64,000 nucleotides of DNA from a virus (UHGV-0027388), one strand, 5' to 3'; shown: positions 3,426 through 32,024, counted from the stretch's first letter. Made by a program: numbers and translations. The notes: generated from the letters alone by a model not told the origin.

Positions 3426-4571
3426 ATGGTTTACTTTGACAATGCGGCCACTACAAAGCCCACTGTAGCTGTTTTAAATACGATGACGAATATTTACCTT
3501 CATTCGTGGGAAAACCCGTCAGCGCTTTACACAGGCGCTCAGAACGCATATCAGCTTCTAGAGCATTACAGGGGAAGGATAGCGCATATGCTTCATTGCG
3601 AAGATGGGGAAGTTTATTTCACGTCTGGGGGGACGGAATCTGACAACTGGGCGATTAAATCTCTAGCTGCTCTTGGGGAGAAGTCGGGGAAGAAGCACGC
3701 TGTCTCCACTGCGATAGAGCACCACGCGGTTTTAAATGCGCTGTACGCCCTCGAACTATCCGGATGGGAAATTACATACCTCACCCCCTCAAAACTCGGT
3801 GTAGTCGATCCTGTGGCGCTAGGAAAGGCATTACGGCCTGATACTGCATTTGTATCTGTCATGTATGCCAACAATGAGACGGGTGCTGTGCAGCCAATCA
3901 GGGAGATTGGAGTCATATGCCGGGAGCGCAACATTCCGTTCCATGTAGACGCTGTTCAGGCTGTAGGGCACATACCTGTAGACATGGAATCGGACAACAT
4001 AGACCTGCTCAGTCTGTCTGCTCACAAGTTCAAAGGTCCGCTGGGAGTTGGGGCTTTGGCTGTGAAGGACAACATTCAGCTTCCTCCGTTCATTGTTGGA
4101 GGGGCGCAGGAGCGCAATATGCGGGCGGGGACTGAGAACCTTCCGGGGGTAGCCGGGATGGAACGCGCACTCTCTGACTGCCGCTCCAATTTGCAAGAAA
4201 CAATTCACGAAGTTGCAAATCTGCGTCGAGAGCTGATTACGCAGATTGAGAAAAGAATACCTGGTGCGAACTGGGTACAGACTTCTTCCAACTGCCTTCC
4301 TGGAATCGCCAGTTTTGTCATTGAGGGCGTAGAGAGTATGCCGCTCATTCTGAGATTAAGCGGGGAAGGGGTGTGTGCTTCGGCTGGTTCCGCCTGTAAC
4401 TCAGGTTCCCTTGATCCATCCCACGTCCTGCTGGCAATGGGGTATGACCGTGAGTTAGCGCATGGGGCCGTCAGATTCAGCCTGAGCGAAGATAACACTC
4501 TTGACGAAGTTCTATATACCGTTGATAAATTGTCCTCTATCGTCTCTGATTTGCGTGAAATGATGTGTTGA
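3426..4571 (+). CDS. cysteine desulfurase (class V aminotransferase, NifS/IscS type)
   Basis: 381 aa. The PLP-lysine motif SAHKFKGPLGVGAL and the active-site Cys loop GSACNSG are present. RBS AGGAGGTG upstream. Confidence 0.9.
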   Translation: MVYFDNAATTKPTVAVLNTMTNIYLHSWENPSALYTGAQNAYQLLEHYRGRIAHMLHCEDGEVYFTSGGTESDNWAIKSLAALGEKSGKKHAVSTAIEHHAVLNALYALELSGWEITYLTPSKLGVVDPVALGKALRPDTAFVSVMYANNETGAVQPIREIGVICRERNIPFHVDAVQAVGHIPVDMESDNIDLLSLSAHKFKGPLGVGALAVKDNIQLPPFIVGGAQERNMRAGTENLPGVAGMERALSDCRSNLQETIHEVANLRRELITQIEKRIPGANWVQTSSNCLPGIASFVIEGVESMPLILRLSGEGVCASAGSACNSGSLDPSHVLLAMGYDRELAHGAVRFSLSEDNTLDEVLYTVDKLSSIVSDLREMMC

Positions 4572-4797: not shown

Positions 4798-4903
4798 GTT
4801 TTTCACTTCCGGCAAAAAAAAACTGCAACTCATTTTCTACACGGTTAGGATTTTACCGTTCCGTAAAAAACGAATTGCAGCAGCAGGATAAAATAAAAAA
4901 CTA

Positions 4904-4932
4904 TTGACTTTCTGCTAGGCAGATGTTATATT
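4904..4932 (+). promoter_or_regulatory. promoter TTGACT-N17-TATATT with a CTAGGC/GCCTAG palindrome around -10
   Basis: Direct reading. The inverted repeat ctaggcagatgttatattatgcctag overlaps the -10. Confidence 0.55.
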
Positions 4933-4962
4933 ATGCCTAGGCGAAAAACTGGAGGTGATTCA

Positions 4963-5145
4963 ATGTCGCCTAAAATGGGACGGCCTATCATGGGAGATGA
5001 GCCAAAGAACAAGCAGATTGCAATGCGAGTAGCGCAAAGCACGGCCGATAAGTTTCAAAAATGCTCTGAACTTTCAGGAAAACCAAAGGTCACTCTGTTT
5101 GAAGACATGGTTAACAGCCTATATGAAAAGCTGACGCAAAAATAA
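4963..5145 (+). CDS. ribbon-helix-helix (CopG/Arc-like) DNA-binding protein (60 aa)
   Basis: RBS GGAGGTG upstream. Starts MSPKMGRPIMGDE..., with a beta strand then two helices. It is paralogous to the MSQNMGRP... RHH at 7473-7649 and sits upstream of small acidic family gene A. Confidence 0.6.
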   Translation: MSPKMGRPIMGDEPKNKQIAMRVAQSTADKFQKCSELSGKPKVTLFEDMVNSLYEKLTQK

Positions 5146-5268
5146 AAATCTCTGCGCTGTTACTTCTTGACGGTCGTACAGCACAGAGATTCGCCAAAGA
5201 GGTTACTCATTGGTAAATCTATTATACCATGCGGTTTGGCCTCTTACAAGTAGAAATGAGGTTTTACT

Positions 5269-5544
5269 ATGACTATCCGTAAAAGCATGAAAGAATTCCA
5301 TAATGACCACTGCGACAACATCTACTGGCTGACGTTCTGCGGCGAGAAAATGTCCGAGCTGATGCGGGACAGCAAGTACGGAGACCGGGCGGCAAAGCCG
5401 GATGACATCGACGATACCGAGATCATGGGAGCGTGGTTCAACTGGGCATTCTCATTTATCGGCGATGAGATTATGAAAGTTGAGGAAAACGTTGATTACC
5501 TGCCGGACGTTCAGATTGAGGAATCTAGCGATATTGCGGAGTAA
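5269..5544 (+). CDS. small acidic protein, family copy A (motif WFNWAFSFIGDE)
   Basis: 91 aa with about 22 Asp/Glu. Paralogous to 7071-7349, 30131-30409 and 63815-64000. Function unknown. Confidence 0.7.
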   Translation: MTIRKSMKEFHNDHCDNIYWLTFCGEKMSELMRDSKYGDRAAKPDDIDDTEIMGAWFNWAFSFIGDEIMKVEENVDYLPDVQIEESSDIAE

Positions 5545-5581
5545 AGTAATAACCCCCTCGATTTCGAGGGGGTTATTACTT
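5545..5581. terminator. bidirectional hairpin terminator between gene A and the 3' end of the tRNA operon
   Basis: agtaataaccccctcg-atttc-gagggggttattact: an 11-bp GC-rich stem flanked by T/A runs. Confidence 0.7.
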
Positions 5582-5656
5582 TGGCAGCGATGGCTGGATT
5601 CAAACCAGCGATGGAGGAGTCAAAGTCCCCTGCCTTAATCACTTGGCTACACCGCT
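5582..5656 (-). tRNA. tRNA-Gln (TTG)
   Basis: The reverse complement folds as a cloverleaf. Acceptor stem AGCGGTG pairs with CATCGCT. Anticodon loop CTTTGAC, T-loop TTTGAAT, encoded CCA. Closely resembles the Firmicute tRNA-Gln pattern. Confidence 0.75.
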
Positions 5657-5846
5657 AAATAGTATTAGCCGCCTCCCTGGATTCGCAGAAGCGGCTAATA
5701 CGTCTCACTAGAGCTGGACTTCTGGTGATCCACCCAGAAACGCTAATTATGCGCATGAATCAGCTGTCCAGCAAAGGCGGGTCATGGTCATTGCACCCAT
5801 GCGCAACCCTTGTACTTCGAGCTGCCCACTAACGCCCCGCATATGA

Positions 5847-5923
5847 TGGTGGACCTTGTAGGTCTCGAACCTACGACCGTGCGGTTATGAGCCGCGTGCT
5901 CTAACCAACTGAGCTAAAGGTCC
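5847..5923 (-). tRNA. tRNA with CAT anticodon (Met or lysidine-type Ile2; the GGACCTTTAGCTCAGTTGGTTAGAGC body favours Ile2)
   Basis: GGACCTTTAGCTCAGTTGGTTAGAGCACGCGGCTCATAACCGCACGGTCGTAGGTTCGAGACCTACAAGGTCCACCA. Confidence 0.8.
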
Positions 5924-6020
5924 GCATTAAACCGAGAGGGCGCATCTTGGTTATCTGGTTTTCTCCCAGACCATCTTTCAGGCGTGCGCCGGTGAGCATT
6001 TATTCCGCTCCTCTCCCGGT

Positions 6021-6094
6021 TGGAGCACCAAGCGGGAATCGAACCCGCGCAATCAGCTTGGAAGGCTGATGTTCTGCCATTAAACTACTGGTGC
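6021..6094 (-). tRNA. tRNA-Gly (TCC)
   Basis: GCACCAGTAGTTTAATGGCAGAACATCAGCCTTCCAAGCTGATTGCGCGGGTTCGATTCCCGCTTGGTGCTCCA. Anticodon loop CTTCCAA. Confidence 0.8.
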
Positions 6095-6201
6095 AAAATG
6101 CCGCCCGAATTGCACGGTCGCCGCCGGAGGTATGTTAAGCGGAGCATTCCATCTAGGCCGAATGCTTATATATGAAAGGAGATGGTTATGTACGCCATCC
6201 G

Positions 6202-6285
6202 TGGTGCCGCTAGTGGGAGTCGAACCCACACGCACAAAGCACAGGAACCTAAATCCTGCACGTCTGCCAATTCCGTCACAGCGGC
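6202..6285 (-). tRNA. tRNA-Leu (TAG), type II with a long variable arm
   Basis: Acceptor GCCGCTG pairs with TAGCGGC. 3-bp D stem. Anticodon loop TTTAGGT. T-arm GTGGGTTCGACTCCCAC. CCA encoded. Confidence 0.8.
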
Positions 6286-6303
6286 AAGCCTGAGTTGAGT
6301 GTA

Positions 6304-6393
6304 TGGCGGCGCAGGTGGGATTTGAACCCACGCACGGTTTCTCCGTCTAGCGGGTTTCAAATCCGCCCCCTTAAACCACTTGGGTACTACGCC
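6304..6393 (-). tRNA. tRNA-Ser (TGA), type II (31:39 A-C mismatch in the anticodon stem)
   Basis: Acceptor GGCGTAG pairs with CTGCGCC. Anticodon loop TTTGAAA. Variable-arm hairpin ACGG-agaaa-CCGT. T-loop TTCAAAT. CCA encoded. Confidence 0.7.
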
Positions 6394-6394
6394 G

Positions 6395-6470
6395 TGGTCG
6401 AAGTGGTGAGACTCGAACTCACGACCTCCTGAACCCAAATCAGGAGCGCTACCAACTGCGCTACACCTCG
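6395..6470 (-). tRNA. tRNA-Pro (TGG)
   Basis: CGAGGTGTAGCGCAGTTGGTAGCGCTCCTGATTTGGGTTCAGGAGGTCGTGAGTTCGAGTCTCACCACTTCGACCA. Only 1 nt separates it from tRNA-Ser. Confidence 0.8.
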
Positions 6471-6486
6471 ATCTATTATATTTCTT

Positions 6487-6563
6487 TGGCGCTATCGGCA
6501 AGGACTTGAACCTGCATCCTCCTGAGTACGAATCAGGCGCTCTGCCATTAGAGCTACGACAGC
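6487..6563 (-). tRNA. tRNA-Thr (CGT), with a bulged T in the T-stem
   Basis: Acceptor GCTGTCG pairs with CGATAGC. Anticodon loop TTCGTAC. T-arm GCAGG-TTCAAGT-CCTtGC carries one extra nucleotide. Confidence 0.7.
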
Positions 6564-6701
6564 ATATATAGCGCCGCCGGAATTGCACCGTGGCTTTCAG
6601 CGTTCGCCGGGGAACTTCCCCAACTGGCCGAAAGAGCCTCCCACTTAGGCGATGAAGGCTTATAAATACATGAAAGGAGAAAGGGCTATCGACCTGCCCT
6701 A

Positions 6702-6777
6702 TGGAGCTGGTGGACGGACTTGAACCGCCGACCATCGACTTACAAAGACGCCGCTCTACCAACTGAGCTACACCAGC
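6702..6777 (-). tRNA. tRNA-like gene, probably tRNA-Thr (TGT), with an imperfect anticodon stem (possible pseudo-tRNA)
   Basis: Acceptor, D arm (GCTCAGTTGGTAGAGC) and T arm (GGCGGTTCAAGTCCGTC) are canonical, with CCA encoded. The anticodon loop is TTTGTAA. Only 3 of 5 anticodon-stem pairs can form (GCGTC/GTCGA). Confidence 0.55.
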
Positions 6778-6854
6778 AGATCGACCGCCCCGAACCGAAA
6801 GAAACAGAAAAATTCGGAGCGGTCAAATAGGATATGTCCCCCATCCCTGATAAA

Positions 6855-6883
6855 ATTATAGCAACAGGTTTGCGTGGTAGTAA
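6855..6883 (-). promoter_or_regulatory. promoter of the tRNA operon (minus strand TTACTA-N17-TATAAT)
   Basis: The reverse complement of 6855-6883 reads TTACTAccacgcaaacctgttgcTATAAT, about 75 nt upstream of the first tRNA. Confidence 0.6.
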
Positions 6884-6999
6884 CCCCTAAAAAAATTTTC
6901 TTGAAAAGGGCTTGATAAGAACGCAGAGCCTGTTAAACTATAGTTGCGCTTGGACGATAGTCTCATGTTTGCCTTCCTCGCAAGTCTTTATTTCTAAAG

Positions 7000-7045
7000 A
7001 AGAAGCAGCACCCGGTGAAAATTCGGGTGCTGCTTCTTTATGCTT
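7000..7045. terminator. bidirectional rho-independent terminator (13-bp stem)
   Basis: gaagcagcacccg-gtgaaaatt-cgggtgctgcttc with T-rich tracts on both sides. Terminates minus-strand family gene B. Confidence 0.75.
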
Positions 7046-7070
7046 TCTAACCGCGTCGATTTCGACACAG

Positions 7071-7349
7071 TTACTTTTTGTATCGCTTCTGCATTTCCTC
7101 CACGGTGTCCACTGTCTCTTCCAGCTGGATGTCAGGAAGGTACTCTGTGTTTTCTCCCATTTTCACAACTTCATCCTGGATGAACTCGAACGCCCACGCA
7201 AAGTAAGTTCCCGCCACCAATGGGTCAATTTCTTGATCTTTGGGGGCATCCCGGAACAGCTCCGCCATCTTCTGAGCGGATTCTGCCGTGTGAATGATGT
7301 TCTCAAAGTGTTCGTTCTGATAGTCTCTCATGCTCTTACGGATAGTCAT
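7071..7349 (-). CDS. small acidic protein, family copy B (motif YFAWAFEFIQDE)
   Basis: ORF 7071..7355. The likely start is the ATG of MTIRKSM..., preceded by AGAAAGGA. Paralog of 5269-5544, with the same MTIRKSM N-terminus. Confidence 0.7.
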   Translation of the reverse strand: MTIRKSMRDYQNEHFENIIHTAESAQKMAELFRDAPKDQEIDPLVAGTYFAWAFEFIQDEVVKMGENTEYLPDIQLEETVDTVEEMQKRYKK

Positions 7350-7472
7350 ATTCAAAATCCTTTCTTGCGTCAGGCAAGAACTAGTGATATAATAAATTTA
7401 TCATTAGGCCTTGCCTTTTGGTGTGTATAAGGCTTCGTCCCGTGATTGCTAGTCCAGGGGGCGAAGTCTTAT

Positions 7473-7649
7473 TTACTTTTCGGTGGACTGTTCAACAAGG
7501 TCAATTCCCTTTCTGACAATATCGCTCTTGGAGAGATTCAGCTTTTCAGCGCACCGTTCAAGTTTCTTGCGGTATTCTTCGTCAAGCCGAACTCTGAGCA
7601 TCGTGTCTTTAGGGCTGTCGCTCTTTGGACGTCCCATGTTTTGCGACAT
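7473..7649 (-). CDS. ribbon-helix-helix protein (58 aa, MSQNMGRPKSDSPKDTMLRVRLDEEYRKKLERCAEKLNLSKSDIVRKGIDLVEQSTEK)
   Basis: Below the ORF-table cutoff. Minus-strand promoter TTGACT-N17-TATATT overlaps direct/palindromic repeats TTGTAGCTACAA. RBS AGAGGTGA. The conflicting + ORF 7446..7898 spans these promoters and is rejected. Confidence 0.55.
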   Translation of the reverse strand: MSQNMGRPKSDSPKDTMLRVRLDEEYRKKLERCAEKLNLSKSDIVRKGIDLVEQSTEK

Positions 7650-7832
7650 CTAATCACCTCTTTCTGTCGCTACAACAAATATATCATTGTAGCTACAACA
7701 AGTCAAGAGTTTTTTTATTTTTCCTTGTCTGTGGCGGAACCGCATGGTATAATGGATTTACCAGTTGCACCGCTTCTGGGGGATAACCGTAAGCTGTTGG
7801 TCGTCAGCCTTTACCAGCTTGCGGTTATTTTC

Positions 7833-8006
7833 TTACTTGCTGAGTTCTTCCTCAAGGACACGCCTGAACCACTCTGTGCGCCCCTCTCCACGTTCTGAGA
7901 GTTTTCGGTCGAGAGCGTCAGCCTTGTCCCTGTCTACGAGGAAAACTAATTGCTTCTTAGCTTTCCTCAACTCGCGGAAGTATTCAGCACGGCTTTTTTC
8001 AGCCAC
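7833..8006 (-). CDS. ribbon-helix-helix-like small protein (57 aa, GTG start; ...KQLVFLVDRDKADALDRKLSERGEGRTEWFRRVLEEELSK)
   Basis: RBS AAGGAGGTG 6 nt upstream of the GTG. Its own TTGACT-N17-TATATT promoter carries a repeated TGTTGCTAACAACAA motif. Confidence 0.45.
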   Translation of the reverse strand: MAEKSRAEYFRELRKAKKQLVFLVDRDKADALDRKLSERGEGRTEWFRRVLEEELSK

Positions 8007-8057
8007 CGGCTCACCTCCTTGTTGCTAACAACAATATACTATGTTGCTAACAACAAG

Positions 8058-8120
8058 TCAAGAAGTTTCTTTTCGTCGGCGGTCACAGTGGGGCTGCTTC
8101 ATGCTTTTACGAATAGTCAT
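8058..8120 (-). pseudogene. truncated 5' remnant of an acidic-family gene (MTIRKSMKQPHCD..., 20 codons then stop)
   Basis: DNA atgactattcgtaaaagcatgaa...ccactgtgac matches the start of copy A with an internal deletion. It runs directly into the promoter of the RHH gene at 7833-8006. Confidence 0.45.
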
Positions 8121-8363: not shown

Positions 8364-8705
8364 ATGGCTGTAACTGAATCCAGGAAAAAAGCGAACGCTA
8401 AATGGGATGCGGCAAATCTTGATAGGATGTCGCTTGCACTCCACAAAGGAAAGAAAGACGCAATTAAAGCGGCGGCGGCGCTGGCCGGTGAAAGTATGAA
8501 CCAGTATATCGGTAATGCAATTGATATGCGCATGGCTGGGGTGGCAGGGAGTGAAGTTACTGCTTCTATTTTGACACCTGCTGCTCTGTGTGCGGCTCAG
8601 ACGGGCGCAAAGCTGGCAGGGGAGGAAGTACCCGCCTTTGTGGAAAGGGCTGTTAAAAACGAATCTAAGCGGGATGAAATGCAAAGAAAACTGCTTGGTA
8701 AATAA
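8364..8705 (+). CDS. ribbon-helix-helix-like DNA-binding protein (113 aa)
   Basis: Likely internal start of ORF 8331..8705. Paralogous to 30578-30775 (KANAKWDAANLD...GESMNQYIGNAI versus KAVAKYTKANYD...GESVNGFIGRAI). The upstream operator carries inverted AAGTACAA/TTGTACTT repeats. Confidence 0.55.
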   Translation: MAVTESRKKANAKWDAANLDRMSLALHKGKKDAIKAAAALAGESMNQYIGNAIDMRMAGVAGSEVTASILTPAALCAAQTGAKLAGEEVPAFVERAVKNESKRDEMQRKLLGK

Positions 8706-9081
8706 AAGGCCCGGAAAAGTGGTGCAAACATGGCAAAAACCAAAGCCCAGCAAGCTACACAAAAGATGAAAACGAGAGTCAACCTTGACGGGCTGGCTCT
8801 CGTTTCTTATTAAAGGCAAGATTGATTTTCTGTGATTATTTTTCGGAATCCGTCTTTATCTGCTTCATAGCATCCTGCATCTTAATCTTATACCAGTAAA
8901 CAGGAAGATTTGCGCAAATTTACACGGTAAACAGTAAGGGATTTACACGGTAAACAGGAGCAAGGGGTGAGAACAGGTATTTTCCCCTATTCCGCAACAC
9001 ATTTTTGTCAACCTGTCAACAGAACTGTCAACTTTCACCCGACTCTACAACTTTTTATTGTGGACGCGGTTGTAGCTAGAT

Positions 9082-9351
9082 TTATGGAATATATTTACAG
9101 AATTTCATGCGCCACGTTCTGGTTGTTATTTCCTCTCTGTGCTTGCGCTGCCATTCTTCTGAAACCTGCTTGAAAGTTATTATTTTTGGCTGAATTGCCT
9201 TGTTTAACTTCGTGTAAAGGCGTTCGGGATCGCGGTCATAAACATACCTCCGTTGACCGTTTCCGCCCAGATAAGAGCCTTGATAGCGACCGTCTTTTTG
9301 CAGTGTAAACATCGACGCGAAATCCAAAGTTTTCTCTTGTTCTTTGCCCAT
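9082..9351 (-). pseudogene. N-terminal fragment of a second tyrosine integrase (arm-binding domain only)
   Basis: MGKEQEKTLDFASMFTLQKDGRYQGSYLGGNGQRRYVYDRDPERLYTKLNKAIQPKIITFKQVSEEWQRKH... matches the integrase N-terminal DNA-binding domain pattern. GGAGGT RBS. No catalytic domain follows. Confidence 0.5.
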
Positions 9352-9846
9352 GATGTTACCTCCCCGTAACAAGCGTTTCTGTTTCTTACGGCGTCAGTTT
9401 ATCATGCGCAGTTTGAAAGTCAATGAACCATCCTGCCCAACAGGCCAGACTGTAAAACGGCGTAGAATGCGTTCTGAGCGGTTTTTATCTGCCGTTGATT
9501 AGTTTTGCACCTACGCACCTAAAAATCGCTTTACGGTCGTTCTGTGGCTTCTGATGGCATTTTGGAAGTGTTCCCTGTGTGTGCAGGTGCGTATATGCGT
9601 GTGTGAGCGCGTGTGATGCCCGGTGTGCCGTTTTCAGAGCTTCAACGGGAAATTACATTCCGCAAGTTCAAAACGCCTTCTTAGCCGCTCTGTGACTGTT
9701 AGAGGGCAACTGATTGATTTGCGCCGAGATTGTATTTTTTTCTTTCCTGATTTCGCAGAATTCCGTCCCACCCGCCGTGTACGCGCACGCGCATCAAGTC
9801 TCTGCATATCTTATAAATATATATTATATATATACTAGACTTGTAA

Positions 9847-9995
9847 GTCTTATTTTCTATTTAGACTCTCTATATATGCTAGTCTCTACTCCTAATCCTG
9901 TAGGTCTTATCTTCTATTTAAGCTCTCTATATATGCTAGTCTGTACTCCTAATCCTGATAGTCTTATTTTCTAACGTAAATCTGTACTATCTGTA
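9847..9995. repeat. about 58-bp tandem repeat, 2.5 copies (agtcttattttctatttagactctctatatatgctagtctctactcctaatcctgt)
   Basis: Direct reading. Copies at 9847-9902, 9903-9960 and 9961-9995. Degenerate TTCTACCGT-type motifs continue to about 10200. Confidence 0.8.
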
Positions 9996-10414
9996 GGTTT
10001 GTACTTCTACCGTACTAAACCTGGAAGTCTTTACTTCTAACTAAGTACTCAAAAAAATAAAAAACTGCATCAATAAACTTGCAAGTCAGTATTTCTACCG
10101 TTAATACGCTGATAGTTATAGCTTTTACTCTTACCGACTATGCTTATAACTTTCCTAAACTTAGAGTTCAAGCCGCTACACAGTATTGCCATTTACTACC
10201 ATAAATATTCCTTTGATTTTACAATTTTATGCGTCTACGGCAGATTTGTTACGGAGTTGACACTTTTTGTCAAGGTTGACAAATATTTTCCTACTCGGTA
10301 GTTAATTACTATTATTATAAAATCCGACGATTTTCGCCTCTTGGTGCATGATACGCCTTTGCCGTGCACCAAACAACACCGCAAATCAGTTTACCATCAT
10401 AAGGAGGAACGCAA

Positions 10415-10715
10415 ATGAAAGAGAAGCGAAATAAGTTAGGCCTGACACAAGAGCAGGTCGACAGGGTGTGATCGTGTGCTTGATGCAAAAGAGATCAACG
10501 CCGAAATAGCCCGCCTTGAATACGTCGAGAGCAGCTATCCGAATTACGCCAAGCTGGCCGACCTCTATATCATCCGCGATAAGATGGAGTCATGCGCAAG
10601 ATTGAGCAAATATAATGCAAATCCCCCAGCCGAAAAAGCTGGGGGATTTGCCGTAGCAAAAACGTATCAAAAGGCGAAATTCACGGTACTTAATTCAAAC
10701 AGAAACGAGCCTTAA
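10415..10715 (+). pseudogene. disrupted HTH-domain gene (18-codon XRE-like N-terminus MKEKRNKLGLTQEQVDRV, stop, then a C-terminal ORF in the +1 frame)
   Basis: AAGGAGGAAC RBS. The first frame stops at 10469-10471. ORF 10476..10715 continues in another frame. Confidence 0.35.
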
Positions 10716-10890: not shown

Positions 10891-11961
10891 TTATGGCGTA
10901 GCAGAATCGTAGCATCTCTCCAAAATGGAGCACAAATCGTCCCGTTTGGCTTTGTAGAGATGGGAGTAAACACGGAGTGTTACAGTCACATTTTCGTGGC
11001 CTAAACGCTCTGCTATGAGCAGTGGCTGCACCCCCTGGTCTATCAGCATCGACGCGTGAGAATGTCGGAGATCATGCACCCTGATGATCGGCACACCTGC
11101 CTTAACGCAGTTGCGCTTGCAGTGGTTGCGGAGCATAGACGCGCTTGTACCCTCGAATAGCCTACCGCCTGACATTGTGGCGATAAGCGGGGCTAATTCC
11201 TCCTGCAAAAAGTGTGGGATTGATACAACTCTGACGGAGCTTGCAGTTTTAGGCACTCCGATAATTTCTTCTCCGTTCAGCTTTATGTAGGTTTTGGTAA
11301 TGGATATTTTACCGTCGCTCACATCCTCTGGTGCAAGCGCCAGCAACTCGCCCTCACGCATACCCGTCCAAAACAATGTGTCGAAAGCAATCTTCATAAG
11401 CTCGTTTTGCTCACAAGAACGGAATTTGGCATACTCCTGCACGGTCAGAAATTTCATTTCTCGCTTTTTTTCATTTCTCTTTTCGGCGACTGCGTTTGTG
11501 CATGGATTTGACGGCAGTCCATATAACCGGACAGCAAAGTTAAAAATGCTCGATAACCTCGATTTCAACATAGCGGTCGTCGTTTGAGATAGTTTCCCTC
11601 CGGTTATGCGCGATTTCCGGTTTTGCAGATCGCTATACCACTTGCGTACAGCCAGTGGCGTGACGTCTTGCACTGCGGTTTTTCCAAACGCTGGGCGCAA
11701 ACTCTTTTCGACCGCGAATTCAATCGACGAGTATGTCGTCGGCTTCACCCTTGTTTTTGCGTCCTCTAGATATAGGTCAAGCAGCGACGACATGGACATA
11801 GATAGACTTCCATTCATCTTTTGCAAAAATTCACGCTCGTACTGCTGGGCTTCTCGTTTTGTTGGAAATCCCTCTTTTTTCTTTTGTTTTCGCGTCCCAT
11901 CAAATGTAGTATATCTACAGGTCACCTTCCAGCGCCCGTCCGGCATTTTCGATACGCTCAT
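10891..11961 (-). CDS. int: tyrosine site-specific integrase (phage integrase family)
   Basis: 356 aa. N-terminal arm-binding motif MPDGRWKV. C-terminal catalytic residues in HDLRHSHASMLIDQG...LGHENVTVTLRVYSHLY. Confidence 0.9.
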   Translation of the reverse strand: MSVSKMPDGRWKVTCRYTTFDGTRKQKKKEGFPTKREAQQYEREFLQKMNGSLSMSMSSLLDLYLEDAKTRVKPTTYSSIEFAVEKSLRPAFGKTAVQDVTPLAVRKWYSDLQNRKSRITGGKLSQTTTAMLKSRLSSIFNFAVRLYGLPSNPCTNAVAEKRNEKKREMKFLTVQEYAKFRSCEQNELMKIAFDTLFWTGMREGELLALAPEDVSDGKISITKTYIKLNGEEIIGVPKTASSVRVVSIPHFLQEELAPLIATMSGGRLFEGTSASMLRNHCKRNCVKAGVPIIRVHDLRHSHASMLIDQGVQPLLIAERLGHENVTVTLRVYSHLYKAKRDDLCSILERCYDSATP

Positions 11962-11971
11962 GTCCTACACC

Positions 11972-12391
11972 TCAAATATAGTCCTCAAAATATTGGAGCG
12001 TGCTATATTCGCAAATCAACTTATTGCGCGGAACATCAATCCGAGACTTTGCCTTTTTGTATGTCCTGATATATTGCTCCATTTTTTGCGCTACGAGATG
12101 TTCTTTCCCTCTCAAAGCGTCAAACTCGTTCTGCCTGATATGTGGCTGCACATCGGAAATATAGGAGTTCTTGCGGAGCAAAACGGCCTTTGTGAAATCA
12201 ACACCACACCCAGAATCTTGATCTGTCCATAACACATATTTGTGCTTGATGTGCGACCTCAAAGGAACAGCAAATAAATTCCCCTTAATTCGCACGCAAA
12301 GCATAATGTATGGTCTATCTGCTTTCTGCTCAATTTCCGGGCAATCAAGGTGATCTCGGAAGAATGTATCGGTAAGAAAGATAAAATGCAA
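11972..12391 (-). CDS. toxN: type III toxin-antitoxin toxin, ToxN/AbiQ-family endoribonuclease
   Basis: 139 aa. RPYIMLCVRIKGNLFAVPLRSH aligns with the RPY..G....G..Y..PLSS core of ToxN/AbiQ. The C-terminal CEYSTLQYFEDY resembles ToxN C.FS.LEE.Y. TTG start directly after an intrinsic terminator. Confidence 0.75.
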   Translation of the reverse strand: MHFIFLTDTFFRDHLDCPEIEQKADRPYIMLCVRIKGNLFAVPLRSHIKHKYVLWTDQDSGCGVDFTKAVLLRKNSYISDVQPHIRQNEFDALRGKEHLVAQKMEQYIRTYKKAKSRIDVPRNKLICEYSTLQYFEDYI

Positions 12392-12611: not shown

Positions 12612-13211
12612 TCATAACTTATGCACCACCGATGTTGTATAACTCGCCTTACCGTCCATGACGGCCGCACGGCCTTTGCGCAGGCCGTCTCGGAAAGTCT
12701 CCACATCTGGCATGATGCGGTCTGTGTTGACCAGTAGGCCGTTCGCGCTGGCTGCCTCGTACAGGGTGTCAATCAGGGATGCGACCGCCAGACGCATTGT
12801 CATGGGGAGGTGATCTAACATCACAAATTCTTCAGACTGAGCGCCGATGTTGGAGCCGTGTTCGCCAAACACTAAAAAATCGAATTTTCGCACGGCGCGG
12901 TCCGATGCGACATTGCCTATATAGTGTAGCGCTGCACGGCGCAGCTCGTCGATGCTGCTATCCCGCGTGAGCGTGTACACATCCGGGTAAAGATACTCCA
13001 GCACGGAGGTCAGGGCGTCAACGCTGAATAGGTCAAACCACGAGATAAACTCATCGACGCGAGGAGCTGTCTGCCCGGACTCGTACTTGTCCCACGTCCT
13101 CAAATCTACACCGATCATCTCGGCCATTTTATACTTCGGCAGGCCGGTTCGCGCTCTCAATTTTTGTAGCACAAGAGCACATCCGCCTCGTAATTCTTCC
13201 CTCGTTCTCAT
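12612..13211 (-). CDS. XRE-family HTH protein with an uncharacterised C-terminal domain (199 aa)
   Basis: N-terminal HTH LQKLRARTGLPKYKMAEMIGVDLRTWDKYESGQ. No peptidase motif seen. Confidence 0.65.
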   Translation of the reverse strand: MRTREELRGGCALVLQKLRARTGLPKYKMAEMIGVDLRTWDKYESGQTAPRVDEFISWFDLFSVDALTSVLEYLYPDVYTLTRDSSIDELRRAALHYIGNVASDRAVRKFDFLVFGEHGSNIGAQSEEFVMLDHLPMTMRLAVASLIDTLYEAASANGLLVNTDRIMPDVETFRDGLRKGRAAVMDGKASYTTSVVHKL

Positions 13212-13743: not shown

Positions 13744-14103
13744 TTATTGCATATCTTTTAGATCAGAGTACATTTCGCGGATCATGCGCTTCACCCGCTC
13801 TTGCTCGGTTGGAGGAAGCGTATCAATAAAAGCAGCAGTTTCTTCCGCCGCCTGACTATGACCGCCGCCCATTTGGGTGGCGGTTTTTTCGTCTCCAACA
13901 ATGGAGTCAATCGACACAGAAAAATACTCCGCAATCTTGTTCAGTGTCTTTGTGCTTAATCCGAACTTTCTTCCGCTTTTTAAATCGCTCATGATACCAC
14001 GGCTTATTCCGATGTCGGTACACATCCGGGAATCGGTGACACCCTTGCGCACACACAATGCGTGGATTGTTTCGTACAAATTGCCCATATGCAGACACCC
14101 CAT
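13744..14103 (-). CDS. CI-like XRE-family repressor (119 aa)
   Basis: HTH IHALCVRKGVTDSRMCTDIGISRGIMSDLKSGRK. Divergent from a Cro-like gene across a repeat-rich operator region. Confidence 0.7.
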   Translation of the reverse strand: MGCLHMGNLYETIHALCVRKGVTDSRMCTDIGISRGIMSDLKSGRKFGLSTKTLNKIAEYFSVSIDSIVGDEKTATQMGGGHSQAAEETAAFIDTLPPTEQERVKRMIREMYSDLKDMQ

Positions 14104-14983: not shown

Positions 14984-15355
14984 TCAGTCTTTTGTATCTT
15001 CGCTCTCTTCTGCAAGAAACTCCTGAGCAAGCTGTCCGCGAAGATACCGCAGAACAAACTTCTTCCGTTCAGGGGACAATCTGAGCAGGATATAGTCAAT
15101 TTCTTCATCAACATTTAAATCTTTAGAGAATCCGTCGTTCTTCGGAGCGATGGATTCTTTTTTTACGTCATTGTCCAGAAAATACTCAACCGGAATATCA
15201 AGAGCATCTGCGATAGCTTTCAGCGTATTTCCGCGAGGCTTTCCTCCGTTTTGCCAGTTGGTAATATTTCCGCTGCTCATTCCTATCTTAGCCAAAAAAG
15301 CTGTGACAGAGATACCCTTGCACGCGCACGCATACTGCAATTTGCTATAAAACAT
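14984..15355 (-). CDS. XRE-family HTH repressor (123 aa)
   Basis: HTH LAKIGMSSGNITNWQNGGKPRGNTLKAIADAL. Confidence 0.7.
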   Translation of the reverse strand: MFYSKLQYACACKGISVTAFLAKIGMSSGNITNWQNGGKPRGNTLKAIADALDIPVEYFLDNDVKKESIAPKNDGFSKDLNVDEEIDYILLRLSPERKKFVLRYLRGQLAQEFLAEESEDTKD

Positions 15356-16041: not shown

Positions 16042-16150
16042 AATGGGACACCTCCAAATATTTTTACAAAAGGGGTTGTAACTACAAATGTGTAGTGCTA
16101 TAATACAGCTACACTACATTTTTGTAGTGAATCCAGAAAGAGAGGAGCAA
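16042..16150. promoter_or_regulatory. divergent operator region with ACTACA-aatg-TGTAGT and CACTACA-ttttt-TGTAGTG palindromes flanking TATAAT
   Basis: Direct reading. Confidence 0.6.
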
Positions 16151-16357
16151 GTGAATGTGGCATTAAGAGCGGCCCGCGAACAGTCCGGCAAGACACAAGC
16201 GCAGGTCGCTAAAGAAGTGGGAATTGCCGAAATTGCGTACCAAAGATACGAATACGGCACGACAGAACCACGAGTGCGGACGGCAATCCGCATCGCAGAC
16301 GCATTGGGAACAACGGTGGAAGCGTTGTTCAGGGAAGATTATACACGCTCAGAATGA
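16151..16357 (+). CDS. XRE-family HTH regulator (68 aa, GTG start)
   Basis: GAGAGGAGCAA RBS then GTG. AREQSGKTQAQVAKEVGIAEIAYQRYEYGTTEP is paralogous to 15826-16041 (shared YQRYEYG). Confidence 0.6.
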   Translation: MNVALRAAREQSGKTQAQVAKEVGIAEIAYQRYEYGTTEPRVRTAIRIADALGTTVEALFREDYTRSE

Positions 16358-29352: not shown

Positions 29353-29677
29353 TTCATACTTGGATAGGCTCCAACAACAGCGGGAGCTGGAACTCAATAT
29401 TGCGGAGACATGGGCTATTCAGAGTGCTATGGACTGCGCTGGGGATATTATGAACTCCATGTTTGGAATCGGTCGAGACAGGCTGGCGGAGTTCAATGCG
29501 GAATTTCAGAAGAATTACCCGGACTACCGAAGGGCGCTGACAAGAGACCCGGAAGCAGACTATTTCAGAGAAAAGATAGACCAGCGTCAAAAAGAAATTT
29601 ATAAAGAAAAAGCCCTCCCGTGGGAGGACAGATACGATGGATGGAAGGAGTTTTCCAATGCGAGTAAAGTTAGATGA
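29342..29677 (+). CDS. hypothetical protein (111 aa)
   Basis: Internal ATG (MKRNSYLDRL) of ORF 29246..29677. Confidence 0.4.
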   Translation: MKRNSYLDRLQQQRELELNIAETWAIQSAMDCAGDIMNSMFGIGRDRLAEFNAEFQKNYPDYRRALTRDPEADYFREKIDQRQKEIYKEKALPWEDRYDGWKEFSNASKVR

Positions 29678-30068
29678 GGGTGCATTCCCACCAGTCAGAG
29701 AGCATGAAACAGATGCTGGGCTTGACCTTAAAACCCCTATTTCCTTCAAGATTCTTCCGCACGAATCTAAAATCATTGATACCGGAGTCCATATTGAGCT
29801 TCCGCACGGAACAGTCGGAATGCTGAAAAGCAAGTCCGGACTGAACGTCAAGAAGAACATTGTGTCGGAGGGTGTCATTGATGAAGGATATACCGGGAGC
29901 ATTCGCGTAAAGCTCTATAATCATGGGAATTTCTTTGTGCCATTTGAGCGCGGAGACAAAATCAGCCAGCTTGTGATTATGCCTGTTCTCTATGAAGATG
30001 TAAAGATCGTTCATAAGCTGAAACCCTCTGAGCGCGGTGACAACGGATTTGGAAGCACCGGACGATAA
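29658..30068 (+). CDS. dut: dUTP diphosphatase (dUTPase)
   Basis: Motifs AGLDL, GVIDEGYTG and RGDNGFGSTG. AAGGAG RBS. Confidence 0.9.
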   Translation: MRVKLDEGAFPPVREHETDAGLDLKTPISFKILPHESKIIDTGVHIELPHGTVGMLKSKSGLNVKKNIVSEGVIDEGYTGSIRVKLYNHGNFFVPFERGDKISQLVIMPVLYEDVKIVHKLKPSERGDNGFGSTGR

Positions 30069-30130
30069 AGACAACCGAACGATAAAAAATGAGTGGCGCT
30101 CAAAACTGAGCGCCACTCATTATGCTTCTG

Positions 30131-30409
30131 TCACGCATTGCTCTCCGGTTTCTCGACAGATGCCGCGCAAAGTTTGCTCACTGCATCTAACACTTCGTCA
30201 ACGCCCGGCATTTCGGTCAGATCAAGCGTCTCCTCGTACAGATCACGCGCCTCCTTATGGATGAACTCACTCGCCCAGTAGAAGAACTGGCTGTATTCCT
30301 CGGAATCTACCTCAGTTCCGATTTTGAGTTGGAAGTTCATGAAATCTGCGACCTGCTTTGCGCCATAGGCTACCTGACGGATGTTTTCAATCTTGGTATT
30401 CTTGTTCAT
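30131..30409 (-). CDS. small acidic protein, family copy C (motif FFYWASEFIHKE)
   Basis: 92 aa. Shares the family motif. AAGGAGGA RBS. Divergently transcribed from an RHH gene across palindromic operators. Confidence 0.7.
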   Translation of the reverse strand: MNKNTKIENIRQVAYGAKQVADFMNFQLKIGTEVDSEEYSQFFYWASEFIHKEARDLYEETLDLTEMPGVDEVLDAVSKLCAASVEKPESNA

Positions 30410-30500: not shown

Positions 30501-30544
30501 TATTGTACCCAATATATGTGTAAAGTGACTATTGTACCCAATAT
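30501..30544. promoter_or_regulatory. two copies of a 16-bp palindromic operator ATATTGtaccCAATAT (30501-30516, 30529-30544)
   Basis: Direct reading. Lies between divergent genes C and the RHH at 30578, just upstream of the -10-like GATATAAT. Confidence 0.65.
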
Positions 30545-30577: not shown

Positions 30578-30775
30578 ATGTCAGCAACTAAAGCACAGCA
30601 AAAGGCTGTTGCAAAGTATACTAAAGCAAATTATGACGAAATTAAGATTCGCACAGCAAAAGGCCAGAAAGCAGTAATCAAAGCCCACGCAGAAGCGCAC
30701 GGAGAAAGCGTCAACGGTTTTATAGGCCGCGCAATCAATGAGACGATTGACAGAGACAACGCCGAAAGCAGATAA
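30578..30775 (+). CDS. ribbon-helix-helix-like DNA-binding protein (65 aa)
   Basis: Paralogous to 8364-8705. Immediately downstream of the palindromic operators. Confidence 0.6.
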   Translation: MSATKAQQKAVAKYTKANYDEIKIRTAKGQKAVIKAHAEAHGESVNGFIGRAINETIDRDNAESR

Positions 30776-30917
30776 ACCATTGAATTTTGTGCGTTATAGT
30801 TGACAATGCGTGGTAAATAAAGTATATTTATTTTGATAAACGGCGCACTCCGCGTCACCGACAAGGTGTATGGAGTGCGCCGTTTCTTTATTTACGGAGA
30901 AAGGGGGATGCAATCGG

Positions 30918-32024
30918 ATGAAGTACAGCGAGTTTGACGAGGACGAACTGGACGAACTGGATGAAGAATTCGACGATGATCCGGATGAAACGGAAGATGC
31001 GGAAGAAGCCGTTGGTGAATCCAAGGGCACACGGGATTGGTCTGAGCGCGGGATGGCGGAAAAGGCCGTATTTGACCAGTTCGAGGCGGTCTTTGGAAAG
31101 AATCTTGCTGTGTTTTACTGCTGCGTCCGGTTTGACATTCCCTTTGAGACGAACTGCGTTCCTAAGAAACCAGTAGATAACGCATGGGCGCTCTATAAGC
31201 GCCGTCTGCGCAAGAGAAAAGAATATCTCGGTGAGAATTTTGGTGGAAAAGGCTTTCTTGATGGAATGGCCGACATCACCAAAATTTTTGGTGCAGACCT
31301 TACCCTAAAGGACTTCTCACGGGCAGTTGACGCGGAGGTTGCCGCCCGTGTGCGCCGCAATGGCACTAATAAGCAGAGGGCGGATTGGGGCACAAACGGC
31401 ACCAAGAATCCGTACACGAACTACGACTACCAAGAACTGGACAGAACCTACGCTATTTTCTGCTCCCGTAAAAAGGGCGTTGGTTTGGATGAACAGCAGG
31501 AATATACTCTGCGTGAGTGCGCAAAGATGGACTTGGCAATGCAGAAAGCAATGCAAGCCGGAGACGTTCAGACCGCCGCAAAGTATCACGCTATGATTCA
31601 AAAGAGCCTTGAATCTGAAAGTATGCGCAAGAAGGATGAAAAACCAGTTGATGATTTGAGAATCGACGGCATCACAGATGCGCTTGAAAAGAAGTATGGA
31701 ATTGATCCTAACAAGATGCTCTCTAAAGAAGCGGTTCTGAAAGTGATCTATGAATGGATGCGCAGTAAGAAATATCCCGAAACGCTGGACTGCGCCCATA
31801 AAATCACACTGAGCATTATCAATGCAACGCGAATCAACAACGATGAACCACCGCTGCTTGACCTGCCAGAAGAACTTGAGTTCACCGACGATTACGGAGA
31901 GCTGGCAAAAGAGCCGAATGAAGCGGAACAAGCGGCATATGAGTATCTTGGATTGATCCGAGGGAATGGGAAGGCAAACCCACCCACGGAAGAAAACGAC
32001 AAGGACGAGATAGACGATGGCTAA
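30918..32024 (+). CDS. acidic phage protein, possible terminase small subunit or packaging accessory (368 aa)
   Basis: Sits immediately upstream of, and overlapping, the terminase large subunit. N-terminal poly-acidic tract. Assigned by position only. Confidence 0.35.
   Translation: MKYSEFDEDELDELDEEFDDDPDETEDAEEAVGESKGTRDWSERGMAEKAVFDQFEAVFGKNLAVFYCCVRFDIPFETNCVPKKPVDNAWALYKRRLRKRKEYLGENFGGKGFLDGMADITKIFGADLTLKDFSRAVDAEVAARVRRNGTNKQRADWGTNGTKNPYTNYDYQELDRTYAIFCSRKKGVGLDEQQEYTLRECAKMDLAMQKAMQAGDVQTAAKYHAMIQKSLESESMRKKDEKPVDDLRIDGITDALEKKYGIDPNKMLSKEAVLKVIYEWMRSKKYPETLDCAHKITLSIINATRINNDEPPLLDLPEELEFTDDYGELAKEPNEAEQAAYEYLGLIRGNGKANPPTEENDKDEIDDG

Follow-up and report, generated by a model that had tools for sequence, protein, structure and literature searches.

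In the immunity I region (immI) of phage P22, the RHH protein Arc heads an operon and autoregulates at an operator in its promoter, a small antisense RNA, sar, is made from the arc-ant spacer, and a second RHH repressor, Mnt, is divergently transcribed (PMC2629481). The P22 "ant moron" is a mosaic accessory insert whose content varies among related phages (PMC2629481). In pMV158, the antisense RNAII has its target in the intergenic mRNA, immediately 5' of the signals for repB translation (PMC4485353). Aca14, an RHH regulator with inverted repeats spanning the -10 box, is described in "acr-rhh" operons. AbbA of Bacillus and Qtip of phage VP882 are small antirepressors, a kind of short stand-alone protein that inactivates a DNA-binding repressor by binding it or by mimicking DNA; AbbA is acidic. 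Because the hosts in gut Clostridia are uncultured, hardly any work exists on conflict between their phages or on lysis-lysogeny control.

Here we analyzed a 64-kb stretch of DNA (the window), the source region of which is a prophage of an uncultured gut Clostridia bacterium. Each of the P22 immI elements (arc-sar-ant layout) has a counterpart in the window, the sRNA and the operators by prediction: there are RHH-first operons with putative operator repeats in their own promoters, a predicted cis-antisense sRNA between RHH and cargo, and Mnt-like divergent RHH genes at 8364-8705 (upstream of the B stack) and 30578-30775 (facing acidic gene C). Ant-family cargo, in contrast, was found only in homologous cassettes of other phages, and the 90-aa acidic cargo of the window, a predicted helical hairpin, is not similar to P22 Ant. 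The hosts also differ (enterobacteria for P22, Clostridia here), and cassettes in the window family are up to three deep.

The likeness to copG-RNAII-repB of pMV158 lies in an RHH repressor cotranscribed with a dosage-critical downstream gene and in a short intergenic countertranscript with its own intrinsic terminator (both predicted here), although RNAII is 48 nt long while the predicted sRNA has 70-80 nt and an extra 5' stem-loop, and the window cargo is not a replication initiator and sits in prophage accessory slots rather than in a replicon. With acr-aca loci the window shares, as far as its regulation is predicted, a small DNA-binding autoregulator with repeats over the -10 box that controls small, fast-evolving mobile-element proteins. 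However, Aca14 is described in the acr-rhh order, with the regulator downstream of acr in the same operon, whereas the window RHH genes lie upstream of the cargo (A and B) or diverge from it (C and the remnant), and antisense RNA goes unmentioned in the Aca14 study ("antisense" occurs 0 times in its text).

The acidic protein family

The window contains four paralogous ORFs of about 90 aa and one 20-codon remnant. The initial annotation had called these four copies and the truncated remnant, and all were found:

5269-5544, + strand: acidic protein A, 91 aa, pI 4.29, net charge -13
7071-7349, - strand: acidic protein B, 92 aa, pI 4.59, ATG at 7349
30131-30409, - strand: acidic protein C, 92 aa, pI 4.43, MNKNTKIENIRQ subfamily
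63815-64000 (window end), - strand: acidic protein D, C-terminal 61 residues only, the 5' part lying beyond the window end
8058-8120, - strand: 5' remnant of an acidic gene (MTIRKSMKQPHCDRRRKETS, then stop), fused to the RHH3 promoter

Asp and Glu account for 20-24% of residues in the four copies, short of the roughly 25% first proposed, and the computed pI and net charge are 4.3-4.6 and -9 to -13. Identity to copy A is 48% for B, 41% for D and 23% for C, and the F/W/A/F/I/E positions are invariant in the alignment of A to D. The motif proposed earlier, [YF]F.WA[FS].FI.[DK]E, therefore holds at its core, but its first position must admit W too, because copy A reads WFNWAFSFIGDE. A family profile detects its own members at E values of 1e-13 to 1e-34; judged by alignment and profile, A to D are true paralogs. 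Across all members, the pI ranges from 4.2 to 4.8 and the net charge from -5 to -13, except for one outlier, P0014 (pI 5.8, net charge -1).

The family forms 26 clusters among 5.8 billion proteins. It has no match in Pfam, PHROG, NCBIfam or PADLOC, nor to PDB sequences, and no significant Foldseek match in PDB or BFVD; the same database and structure searches revealed no homology to antirepressors or to any other protein. By these searches the family is an orphan, in agreement with the initial annotation, which had not recognized it. The predicted structure is a soluble, generic helical hairpin with an acidic tail, and the protein sequences contain no computed hydrophobic segment. The DNA-mimic anti-restriction function once suggested for these proteins has no counterpart in this prediction, which matched no mimic fold and bore no structural likeness to known mimics (Ocr, ArdA).

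The acidic genes sit in accessory ("moron") prophage slots, of which three kinds were seen. One lies beside the integrase end of the prophage, and another lies behind the lysis genes, where copy D directly follows the holin and amidase genes. The third, that of copy C, is the boundary between early genes and the morphogenesis block; it is flanked by a dUTPase gene (29637-30068) and an ORF at 30870, with homologues of the YonD_N-gene neighbors of L086 on the side away from dUTPase. Copies C and D run counter to the phage genes alongside, which are on the + strand, C being antisense to its neighbors. The window acidic genes stand alone, without a Bro-N/ANT partner, and each complete one has its own terminator-like hairpin directly 3':

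5543-5582, both strands: perfect 19-bp hairpin, bidirectional terminator at the boundary of acidic A and tRNA-Gln
6999-7039: 17-bp terminator-like hairpin downstream of acidic B
30088-30121, - strand: terminator of acidic C, 15-bp stem followed by a T-run

RHH genes and a predicted antisense RNA

An RHH gene lies next to every acidic copy whose upstream region falls inside the window. RHH A and RHH B, with MS.xMGRP starts, are as the initial annotation had described them; RHH3 and the divergent RHH genes beside copy C and the remnant were absent from it:

4904-4942, + strand: promoter of RHH A, TTGACT-17-TATATT, operator-like repeats flanking the -10 box (GCTAGGCA at 4914-4921, GCCTAGGC at 4935-4942)
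4963-5145, + strand: RHH A, 60 aa, MSPKMGRP..., first gene of the RHH A-acidic A operon
7473-7649, - strand: RHH B, 58 aa, MSQNMGRP...
7665-7706, - strand: promoter of RHH B, TTGACT-17-TATATT, direct operator-like repeats TGT(A/C)GCTACAACA at 7665-7678 and 7688-7701
7833-8006, - strand: RHH3, third tandem RHH, starting with GTG and 57 aa long, stacked on the upstream side of the RHH B cassette
8020-8061, - strand: promoter of RHH3, TTGACT-17-TATATT, two identical 15-nt repeats TGTTGCTAACAACAA
8364-8705, + strand: Arc-like RHH, 113 aa, divergent from the remnant, Mnt-like position
30501-30544: ATATTGGGTACAATA, present twice between the divergent genes, putative Arc-like RHH operators
30578-30775, + strand: Arc/CopG-like RHH, 65 aa, divergent from acidic C

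The same TTGACT-17-TATATT promoter with paired repeats thus precedes RHH A, RHH B and RHH3, and RHH promoters with paired putative operator repeats also occur in L001, L085, L086, L090 and L098. The palindromes previously reported in the RHH promoters correspond to pairs of operator-like repeats of 8-15 bp around the -10 box, but these are inverted in some cassettes and direct in others. RHH A is predicted to be an autorepressor. Against family libraries, the tandem or stacked RHH proteins gave generic RHH matches only: RHH A to phrog_876 (3.5e-7), RHH B to phrog_876 "transcriptional repressor" (1.7e-16) and to Pfam RHH_1 (20.8 bits, cut-off 20.5), and RHH3 to RHH_1 (E 0.019) and phrog_3896 (2.6e-14). 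PF10723 (RepB-RCR_reg), a further likeness to pMV158, is matched faintly by one tandem RHH and is borne, together with PF03869, by homologues of the RHH at 30578-30775, while the RHH at 8364-8705 weakly matches TacA1. The Arc-like RHH family is uninformative on function because its neighbors elsewhere vary. In other contigs, the RHH-acidic pairing proved to be conserved, with an RHH gene in 13 of 14 complete acidic-family loci; the exception is a deletion-fusion allele.

Each tandem RHH gene is separated from its cargo by a spacer of about 120-130 nt that holds a predicted antisense sRNA gene, an element new to this analysis. In the predicted design, transcription starts from an extended -10 promoter, passes through a 5' stem-loop and ends at a terminator directly against the RHH stop codon:

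5143-5249, - strand: predicted antisense sRNA A, promoter TTGTAA-17-TGgTATAAT at 5249-5221, 72-nt transcript from about 5214 to 5143 that opens with a 5' stem-loop and closes with a terminator hairpin plus U-run at the RHH A stop
7365-7475, + strand: predicted antisense sRNA B, promoter TTGCGT-17-TGaTATAAT at 7365-7393, transcript from about 7400 to 7475 (76 nt), terminator abutting the RHH B stop codon
7717-7835, + strand: predicted antisense sRNA 3, promoter TTGTCT-17-TGgTATAAT at 7725-7753, transcript from about 7760 to 7835, terminator abutting the RHH3 stop codon

The 47-nt promoter element of sRNA 3 (7717-7763) is an inverted copy of 5211-5257. An antisense TTGnnn-17-TGnTAnnnT promoter, 5' stem-loop and terminator at the RHH stop were present in 16 of the 18 RHH-downstream spacers inspected, the hairpins keeping their design with unrelated sequences. 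In IMG/VR, a hairpin and T-run followed the promoter motif at a distance of 73-82 nt in 38 of 39 distinct sequences, compared to 13 of 117 shuffled control sequences. The predicted sRNA matches no Rfam family and has no sequence homology to P22 sar, and an attempt at a consensus fold gave none. Whereas sar covers the ant ribosome-binding site, the predicted sRNA would end about 40 nt short of that of the cargo, and a thermodynamic test of an sRNA-driven switch at this site gave small effects only.

Toxin-antitoxin classifications of these loci were considered and rejected: type II on the length of the sRNA-containing spacers, RHH proteins of 57-60 aa and the lack of a toxin-family or PADLOC match, and type I on a cargo that is acidic and a predicted soluble helical hairpin rather than a hydrophobic, membrane-active toxin.

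The cassette in other phages and candidate roles of the cargo

The RHH and sRNA cassette occurs at no fewer than 85 IMG/VR loci (a lower bound: at least 85), and there its cargo consists mostly of Bro-N/ANT, AntA or Rha operons. The closest homologues of RHH B (68-82% identity) sit 5' of a small ORF and Bro-N/ANT, AntA/ORF6C or pRha, with a spacer of about 130 nt and the sRNA element as in the window. In 70 IMG/VR cassettes an RHH could be identified and the cargo measured 50 aa or more; of these, 21 have a Bro-N protein as direct cargo, 29 have a small protein from a class whose representative has Bro-N/ANT behind it, and only 1 has a member of the acidic family. The first cargo gene usually encodes a protein of 55-101 aa, and the largest small-cargo class is itself acidic (pI about 4.6, 84-101 aa) and followed by Bro-N/ANT. 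None of the cassettes examined carries a known acr gene. Within the window, tblastn found no Bro-N, ANT, AntA or Rha homologue, and a scan of the repressor-region ORFs detected no S24 or ImmA-type domain.

Some antirepressor-type cassettes are located in slots equivalent to those of copies C and D: the P0032 cassette follows lysis genes, like copy D, and the P0041 cassette immediately precedes the terminase genes. RHH cassettes are also exchanged on the same acidic cargo, as a near-identical acidic C gene has a divergent Arc-like RHH in the window and a tandem RHH with sRNA in L086 and L089, and a B-type acidic gene in L085 has an Arc-like RHH with the same ATATTGGGTACAATA repeats. RHH genes are stacked three deep in L113 and two deep in L114 and the window, which suggests that leaky expression is costly.

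As Bro-N/ANT, AntA and Rha operons of related phages lie behind this same tandem cassette, some of them in the same slots, anti-immunity is the most likely role of the acidic proteins, and we tentatively favor reading them as dosage-sensitive, antirepressor-like effectors under multilayer repression. That RHH homologues with the predicted sRNA element control such operons speaks more for a module resembling immunity I than for an acr locus. A shared regulator does not, however, prove a shared function, and "ANT," "AntA" and "Rha" are annotation names; to our knowledge, few members have been tested experimentally, none of them from Clostridia phages.

In the tandem form (copies A and B here, and copy C in sister phages), the RHH gene would be driven from a sigma-70-type promoter that carries two repeats around the -10 box, and transcription probably reads on into the acidic gene, because the intergenic hairpin has no U-tract on the sense strand. 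We infer that the RHH protein shuts its own promoter and that the countertranscript from the spacer pairs with the intercistronic mRNA; the cargo Shine-Dalgarno sequence, buried in a predicted hairpin, would damp translation further, and up to three such units may act in series. In the divergent form (copy C and the remnant), an Arc/CopG-like RHH gene and the acidic gene lie head to head, with two operator-like repeats between them. The acidic helical hairpin itself may bind and neutralize a DNA-binding repressor made by its own prophage or by a competitor, and the diverged paralogs may cover different targets. AbbA and Qtip offer a lead only, the resemblance being one of size, stand-alone nature and, for AbbA, acidity.

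A role in anti-defence, with the proteins inhibiting CRISPR, restriction or other defences, possibly as DNA mimics, and an Aca-like RHH capping a strong early promoter, seems unlikely to us. The proteins are small, acidic, fast-diverging, multi-copy and lineage-restricted, and lie in accessory slots; Aca14 is a precedent for RHH control of anti-defence operons through inverted repeats over the -10 box, and a Lar-type gene and a methyltransferase in related phages indicate that the group invests in counter-restriction. Yet the order here is RHH before cargo, or divergent, unlike the acr-rhh order of Aca14, and the cassette elsewhere runs Bro-N/ANT, AntA and Rha operons rather than known acr genes, so the anti-CRISPR/Aca assignment of the initial annotation gained no specific support. 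Triple-stacked repression with an antisense RNA would also fit a product that harms the lysogen better than a harmless inhibitor. Such a product could be a host-directed toxic, abortive-infection or superinfection-exclusion factor kept silent by type I-like and transcriptional control, consistent with the predicted layers (repressor, countertranscript, buried ribosome-binding site), with the opposite orientation of C and D and with the hairpins behind the complete copies. We nevertheless regard this as improbable, as the acidic proteins are soluble and lack the hydrophobic segment of type I toxins, the RHH proteins are too short to have the C-terminal toxin-binding extension of type II antitoxins, the RHH and cargo genes are 120-130 nt apart rather than overlapping, and PADLOC and toxin families gave no match. 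Moreover, four intact copies coexist in one genome, one of which, P0009 of L001, is intact despite a deletion parting it from its RHH.

The size, charge and position of the acidic family are those of the largest IMG/VR small-cargo class, which precedes Bro-N/ANT, and the acidic proteins could be analogues of that first-gene product, modulating an ANT-type protein or RHH supplied in trans. This is very improbable, given that hhalign detected no homology between the two groups, that the window has no Bro-N/ANT-type gene, and that a terminator-like hairpin directly follows every complete acidic gene there.

If the acidic proteins are antirepressors, as we tentatively propose, they would be among the smallest known; if they serve anti-defence, they would be a new inhibitor family. 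The predicted combination of RHH repressor, cis-antisense sRNA and buried ribosome-binding site is a regulatory cassette absent from Rfam that would mark dosage-sensitive effectors in the IMG/VR contigs and could serve as guilt-by-association bait, as aca genes do for acr genes. The swapping, stacking and inversion of regulatory modules around the same cargo bears on how phage immunity specificities diversify. In a bolder and doubtful version, the acidic hairpins would represent a novel effector class, minimal, stand-alone and directed against immunity or defence, and the RHH and sRNA unit a previously undescribed stackable, portable lock of Clostridia phages; recombination at sRNA promoters, including a 2.5-kb inversion with the host tRNA operon, would re-deal effectors among locks, so that strains hold the same effector under different repressor specificities.

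The tRNA operon segment

The window also contains a tRNA operon, which is located within the invertible 2.5-kb segment:

5582-6777, - strand: operon of eight tRNA genes (Thr, Thr, Pro, Ser, Leu, Gly, Met, Gln)
6863-6855: likely tRNA-operon promoter, extended -10 box TGCTATAAT

The orientation of this segment, which comprises the tRNA operon and two acidic genes, is flipped between metagenomes.

Acidic genes beside a tRNA operon and in a prophage

The window is a segment of Clostridia-type chromosome with a cysteine desulfurase gene, a tRNA operon and a prophage. The prophage begins with a tyrosine integrase gene, followed by genes for HTH regulators, recombination and a dUTPase and then by an extended block of plus-strand ORFs, and it closes with holin and amidase genes. 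We found all four small acidic ORFs (A to D) that the initial annotation had named, and, as it had also described, a small ribbon-helix-helix (RHH) gene directly before each of copies A and B. The features are as follows.

3426-4571, cysteine desulfurase gene
4963-5145, RHH A, directly before acidic A
5269-5544, plus strand, acidic A
5582-6777, minus strand, operon of eight tRNA genes
7071-7349, minus strand, acidic B
7473-7649, RHH B, directly before acidic B
7833-8006, RHH3, a third RHH gene stacked upstream of RHH B
about 8120-8058, minus strand, remnant of an acidic gene (5' part, 20 codons)
8364-8705, Arc/CopG-like RHH gene, divergent, facing the remnant
10891-11961, minus strand, tyrosine integrase gene, one prophage end
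12612-13211, 13744-14103, 14984-15355 and 16088-16357, HTH proteins of the prophage
30131-30409, minus strand, acidic C
30578-30775, Arc/CopG-like RHH gene, divergent, facing copy C
62605-63773, holin and amidase genes, other prophage end
63815-64000, minus strand, acidic D, cut by the window end

In a genome contig scan, the best reference match of the cysteine desulfurase was 51% identical (uncultured Clostridia MAGs, Candidatus Fimenecus), so no close reference genome exists for the host lineage. A DNA search of the phage collection returned the tRNA genes as its sole matches. Positions 8994-10468 (especially 9108-9372), which separate the tRNA locus from the intact integrase gene, match the integrase-proximal prophage end of contig L001, including just the first ~240 nt of its integrase gene. 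Judged by sequence, this stretch is a decayed prophage end, so the present prophage would adjoin, or have partly replaced, an older relative. In three other contigs (L110-L112), an IS605-family TnpB gene (OrfB, Cas12f-like TNB) lies between the cysteine desulfurase gene and RHH B, at the place of the window's RHH A cassette. The 384-aa ORF (30870-32024) that comes after the copy C module is extremely acidic near its N-terminus (DEDELDELDEEFDDDPDETEDAEE) and had no match in Pfam.

The four acidic proteins carry a net charge of -9 to -13, with 20-24% Asp+Glu and a pI of 4.3-4.6, and in their alignment the F, W, A, F, I and E positions are invariant. They fall into two subfamilies, one beginning MTIRKSM... 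(A, B and D) and the other MNKNTKIENIRQ... (C). A profile search of 5.8 billion proteins placed the family in 26 clusters, all unnamed and all metagenomic, while an exhaustive HMMER profile search of 1.84 billion 50%-identity representatives matched three clusters, all of them the family's own. Searches against Pfam, PHROGs, NCBIfam, PADLOC and PDB sequences yielded noise at most, and no relative was found encoded in the species-representative genomes scanned with the family. An AlphaFold model built on a 29-sequence alignment showed a hairpin of two long helices (7-33 and 43-66, pLDDT 86-94); the acidic tail after it includes a third helix and is poorly defined. Conserved positions map to helix 1 (N17, I18, A22) and helix 2 (F50, W52, A53, F56, I57) of the model, where they probably form the core of the hairpin. 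Fold searches with this model returned generic hairpins, with no significant Foldseek match and no DNA-mimic fold.

Putative RHH repressor genes and a predicted antisense sRNA

RHH B scores above the Pfam RHH_1 cut-off, and both RHH B (1.7e-16) and RHH A (3.5e-7) match phrog_876, a "transcriptional repressor" family. Each tandem RHH gene has a promoter of the form TTGACT-17-TATATT, with a pair of 8-15 bp repeats flanking the -10 box whose sequence differs between cassettes. The intergenic region between copy C and its divergent Arc-like RHH gene instead contains ATATTGGGTACAATA twice. This Arc/CopG-like family comprises at least 420 clusters, many with PF10723 or PF03869; its neighbors elsewhere were considered as a functional clue and set aside as heterogeneous and uninformative (a HIRAN-domain gene, Uma2).

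In the tandem cassettes, the 120-130 nt spacer between the RHH gene and the next gene contains a predicted sRNA gene on the opposite strand. Its promoter has a near-consensus extended -10 element (TTGTAA, TTGTCT or TTGCGT, 17 nt, then TGnTATAAT), and the predicted transcript consists of a short 5' stem-loop and then a strong hairpin with a U-run that terminates at the RHH stop codon. The sRNAs predicted in the window would start near 5214 (minus strand), 7400 and 7760 (both plus strand); they are 72-76 nt long and fold at -30 to -34 kcal/mol. As no U-tract follows the hairpin on the sense strand, the RHH transcript would be expected to read through into the cargo gene, the gene downstream of the spacer. 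The same design recurs in ten other contigs (L001, L086, L089, L090, L098, L104, L107, L110, L113 and L114) with terminator stems of unrelated sequence; of 18 spacers, 16 conform strictly to the pattern, and the remaining two carry weaker variants. An exact search for the promoter motif identified 85 IMG/VR loci, with an MSPRTGRP-type RHH gene directly upstream in ~80 of 89 occurrences. Downstream of the motif, a hairpin and T-run at 73-82 nt was present in 38 of 39 distinct sequences, compared with 13 of 117 shuffles. An Rfam scan of the region matched tRNAs alone, leaving the predicted sRNAs without a family, and MAFFT with RNAalifold on 11 of them produced no consensus structure, as their terminator stems cannot be aligned. 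Support for the structure therefore comes from per-sequence folds and the shuffle control, in place of covariation.

At all nine loci (9/9), the Shine-Dalgarno (SD) sequence of the cargo gene is paired in a predicted hairpin with a CCTCTT-like segment, which overlaps the -35 box of the sRNA. We considered a three-element switch, in which bound sRNA would release the anti-SD segment and the ribosome-binding site of the cargo would be sequestered, and examined it by masking the sRNA target. With the target masked, SD pairing rose only modestly in three loci (0.41-0.56 before, 0.57-0.80 after) and shifted by 0.05 or less in six; sRNA binding might conceivably strengthen the SD hairpin.

Rearrangement and cargo of the cassette

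The same acidic gene can be paired with different cassettes. Acidic C faces a divergent Arc-like RHH gene in the window, whereas in L086 and L089 it follows a tandem RHH gene with an sRNA; a B-type gene in L085 is paired with an Arc-like RHH gene and has the same putative operator repeats as copy C. The 2.5-kb segment at 5211-7763, which spans acidic A, all eight tRNA genes and their promoter, acidic B and RHH B, is reversed in other metagenome contigs of the locus (L110, L001-L004). The breakpoints fall exactly at inverted 47-nt sRNA-promoter elements (5211-5257 and 7717-7763), such that inversion exchanges the partners of RHH cassettes and acidic genes. Since the segment occurs in both orientations and copies C and D are carried by the phage, the association of acidic genes with the tRNA operon is positional, and we found no evidence for a tRNA-related function. 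In L001-L004 (~11789-12058), a deletion with window equivalents at 4895 and 7307 joins DNA 3' of the cysteine desulfurase gene to a B-type acidic gene at codon 15. The N-terminus of the resulting protein, P0009, is foreign (MGNELQQQDKI-FENI...), and as no RHH gene precedes it, this is the sole family locus without a regulator.

Cassettes can also be stacked, with three RHH genes in L113 and two each in L114 and the window. At the internal junctions of stacks (L085, L086, L113, L114 and the window), an acidic gene persists as its first 12-17 codons, fused to the promoter of the next RHH gene. Such stubs occur at window 8058-8120, L085 ~2440-2510 and L113 ~2080-2145, and also before the first RHH gene in L086, L113 and L114. 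They are translatable, with a ribosome-binding site, span 20-25 codons where seen whole and are fused closely upstream of the next RHH promoter at comparable A-rich junctions, CCGA(C)GAAAA...TTGACT. The stubs may be scars of a single old recombination event, or short leader ORFs.

In other contigs, proteins closely related to RHH B precede the cargo listed here.

Relatives of RHH B in other contigs, with identity to RHH B, cargo and location
P0028: 95%; acidic B; adjoins the tRNA operon
P0030: 82%; 71-aa ORF, then Bro-N/ANT; adjoins an LPD25 gene
P0032: 81%; 69-aa ORF, then pRha; follows lysis genes
P0041: 76%; 55-aa ORF, then Bro-N/ANT; immediately 5' of terminase genes
P0048: 68%; second RHH, 76-aa ORF, then AntA/ORF6C; between head genes or near lysis genes

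Copy D occupies the same phage slot as the P0032 cassette, after the lysis genes, and the slot of copy C, between early genes and the morphogenesis block, is comparable to the place of the P0041 cassette ahead of the terminase genes. In 70 IMG/VR cassettes the RHH gene could be identified and the cargo measured 50 aa or more. The direct cargo is a Bro-N protein in 21 of them, a small protein of one of two classes whose representatives are followed by Bro-N/ANT in 29, a small basic protein with a 211-285 aa protein in 16, and the acidic family in just one. The larger of the two small-protein classes is itself acidic (84-101 aa, pI ~4.6), and the Bro-N proteins of the largest cargo class (284-304 aa) have an acidic N-terminal extension and a weakly RHH-like C-terminus. 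Besides the acidic family of the window, the cassette marks several unannotated small-protein families of 55-101 aa in IMG/VR loci L126-L209 (e.g., L127, L129 and L138), one of them acidic with the motif F-x-(N/D/E)-W-F-(E/D)-E. No Bro-N, ANT, AntA or Rha homologs were found in the window, no S24 or ImmA domain was detected among the scanned repressor-region ORFs, and hhalign comparison did not relate the acidic family to the small proteins encoded first in ANT operons.

Anti-immunity and anti-defense readings

With its sRNA still a prediction, the cassette has the anatomy of two known dosage locks: immunity I of P22, where the Mnt and Arc RHH repressors and the sar antisense RNA control an antirepressor (PMC2629481), and pMV158, where the RHH protein CopG and the countertranscript RNAII control RepB, RNAII targeting intergenic mRNA immediately upstream of the translation signals (PMC4485353). 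Unlike the cargo of P22, the acidic family has no detectable homology to Ant proteins. As the cassette family overwhelmingly guards operons annotated as antirepressors, a label that for most of this cargo is an annotation name, the best-supported reading is that the acidic proteins are dosage-sensitive anti-immunity effectors, a role we propose tentatively and by association. The initial annotation had instead suggested anti-CRISPR or anti-restriction cargo. Its pairing of acidic and RHH genes and its view of these as accessory modules hold, and small, variable, acidic proteins under RHH control would generally suit anti-defense, with Aca14 as precedent that an RHH regulator can serve acr operons. 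However, the gene order here differs from that of the Aca14 operons and the acidic protein model recovered no DNA-mimic fold; the specific anti-defense assignment is unsupported and the less likely of the two. A toxin-antitoxin reading was rejected because of gene spacing, RHH size and the chemistry of the cargo. We favor an immunity I-like anti-immunity role over an anti-defense role. What is new is the orphan acidic family and a widespread lock of putative RHH repressor and predicted antisense RNA in Clostridia phages; both vary a regulatory logic that is already known and do not amount to a system of a new kind.

Sister phages carry a Lar_restr_allev gene, and the early region of L086 additionally contains genes for an N6_N4 methyltransferase and a PAPS_reduct protein (regions concerned: L086 12236-12427 and 13996-14688; L114 4902-5093). 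The Lar and methyltransferase genes are in keeping with the initial remark that the element in the window carries Lar proteins and a methylase.
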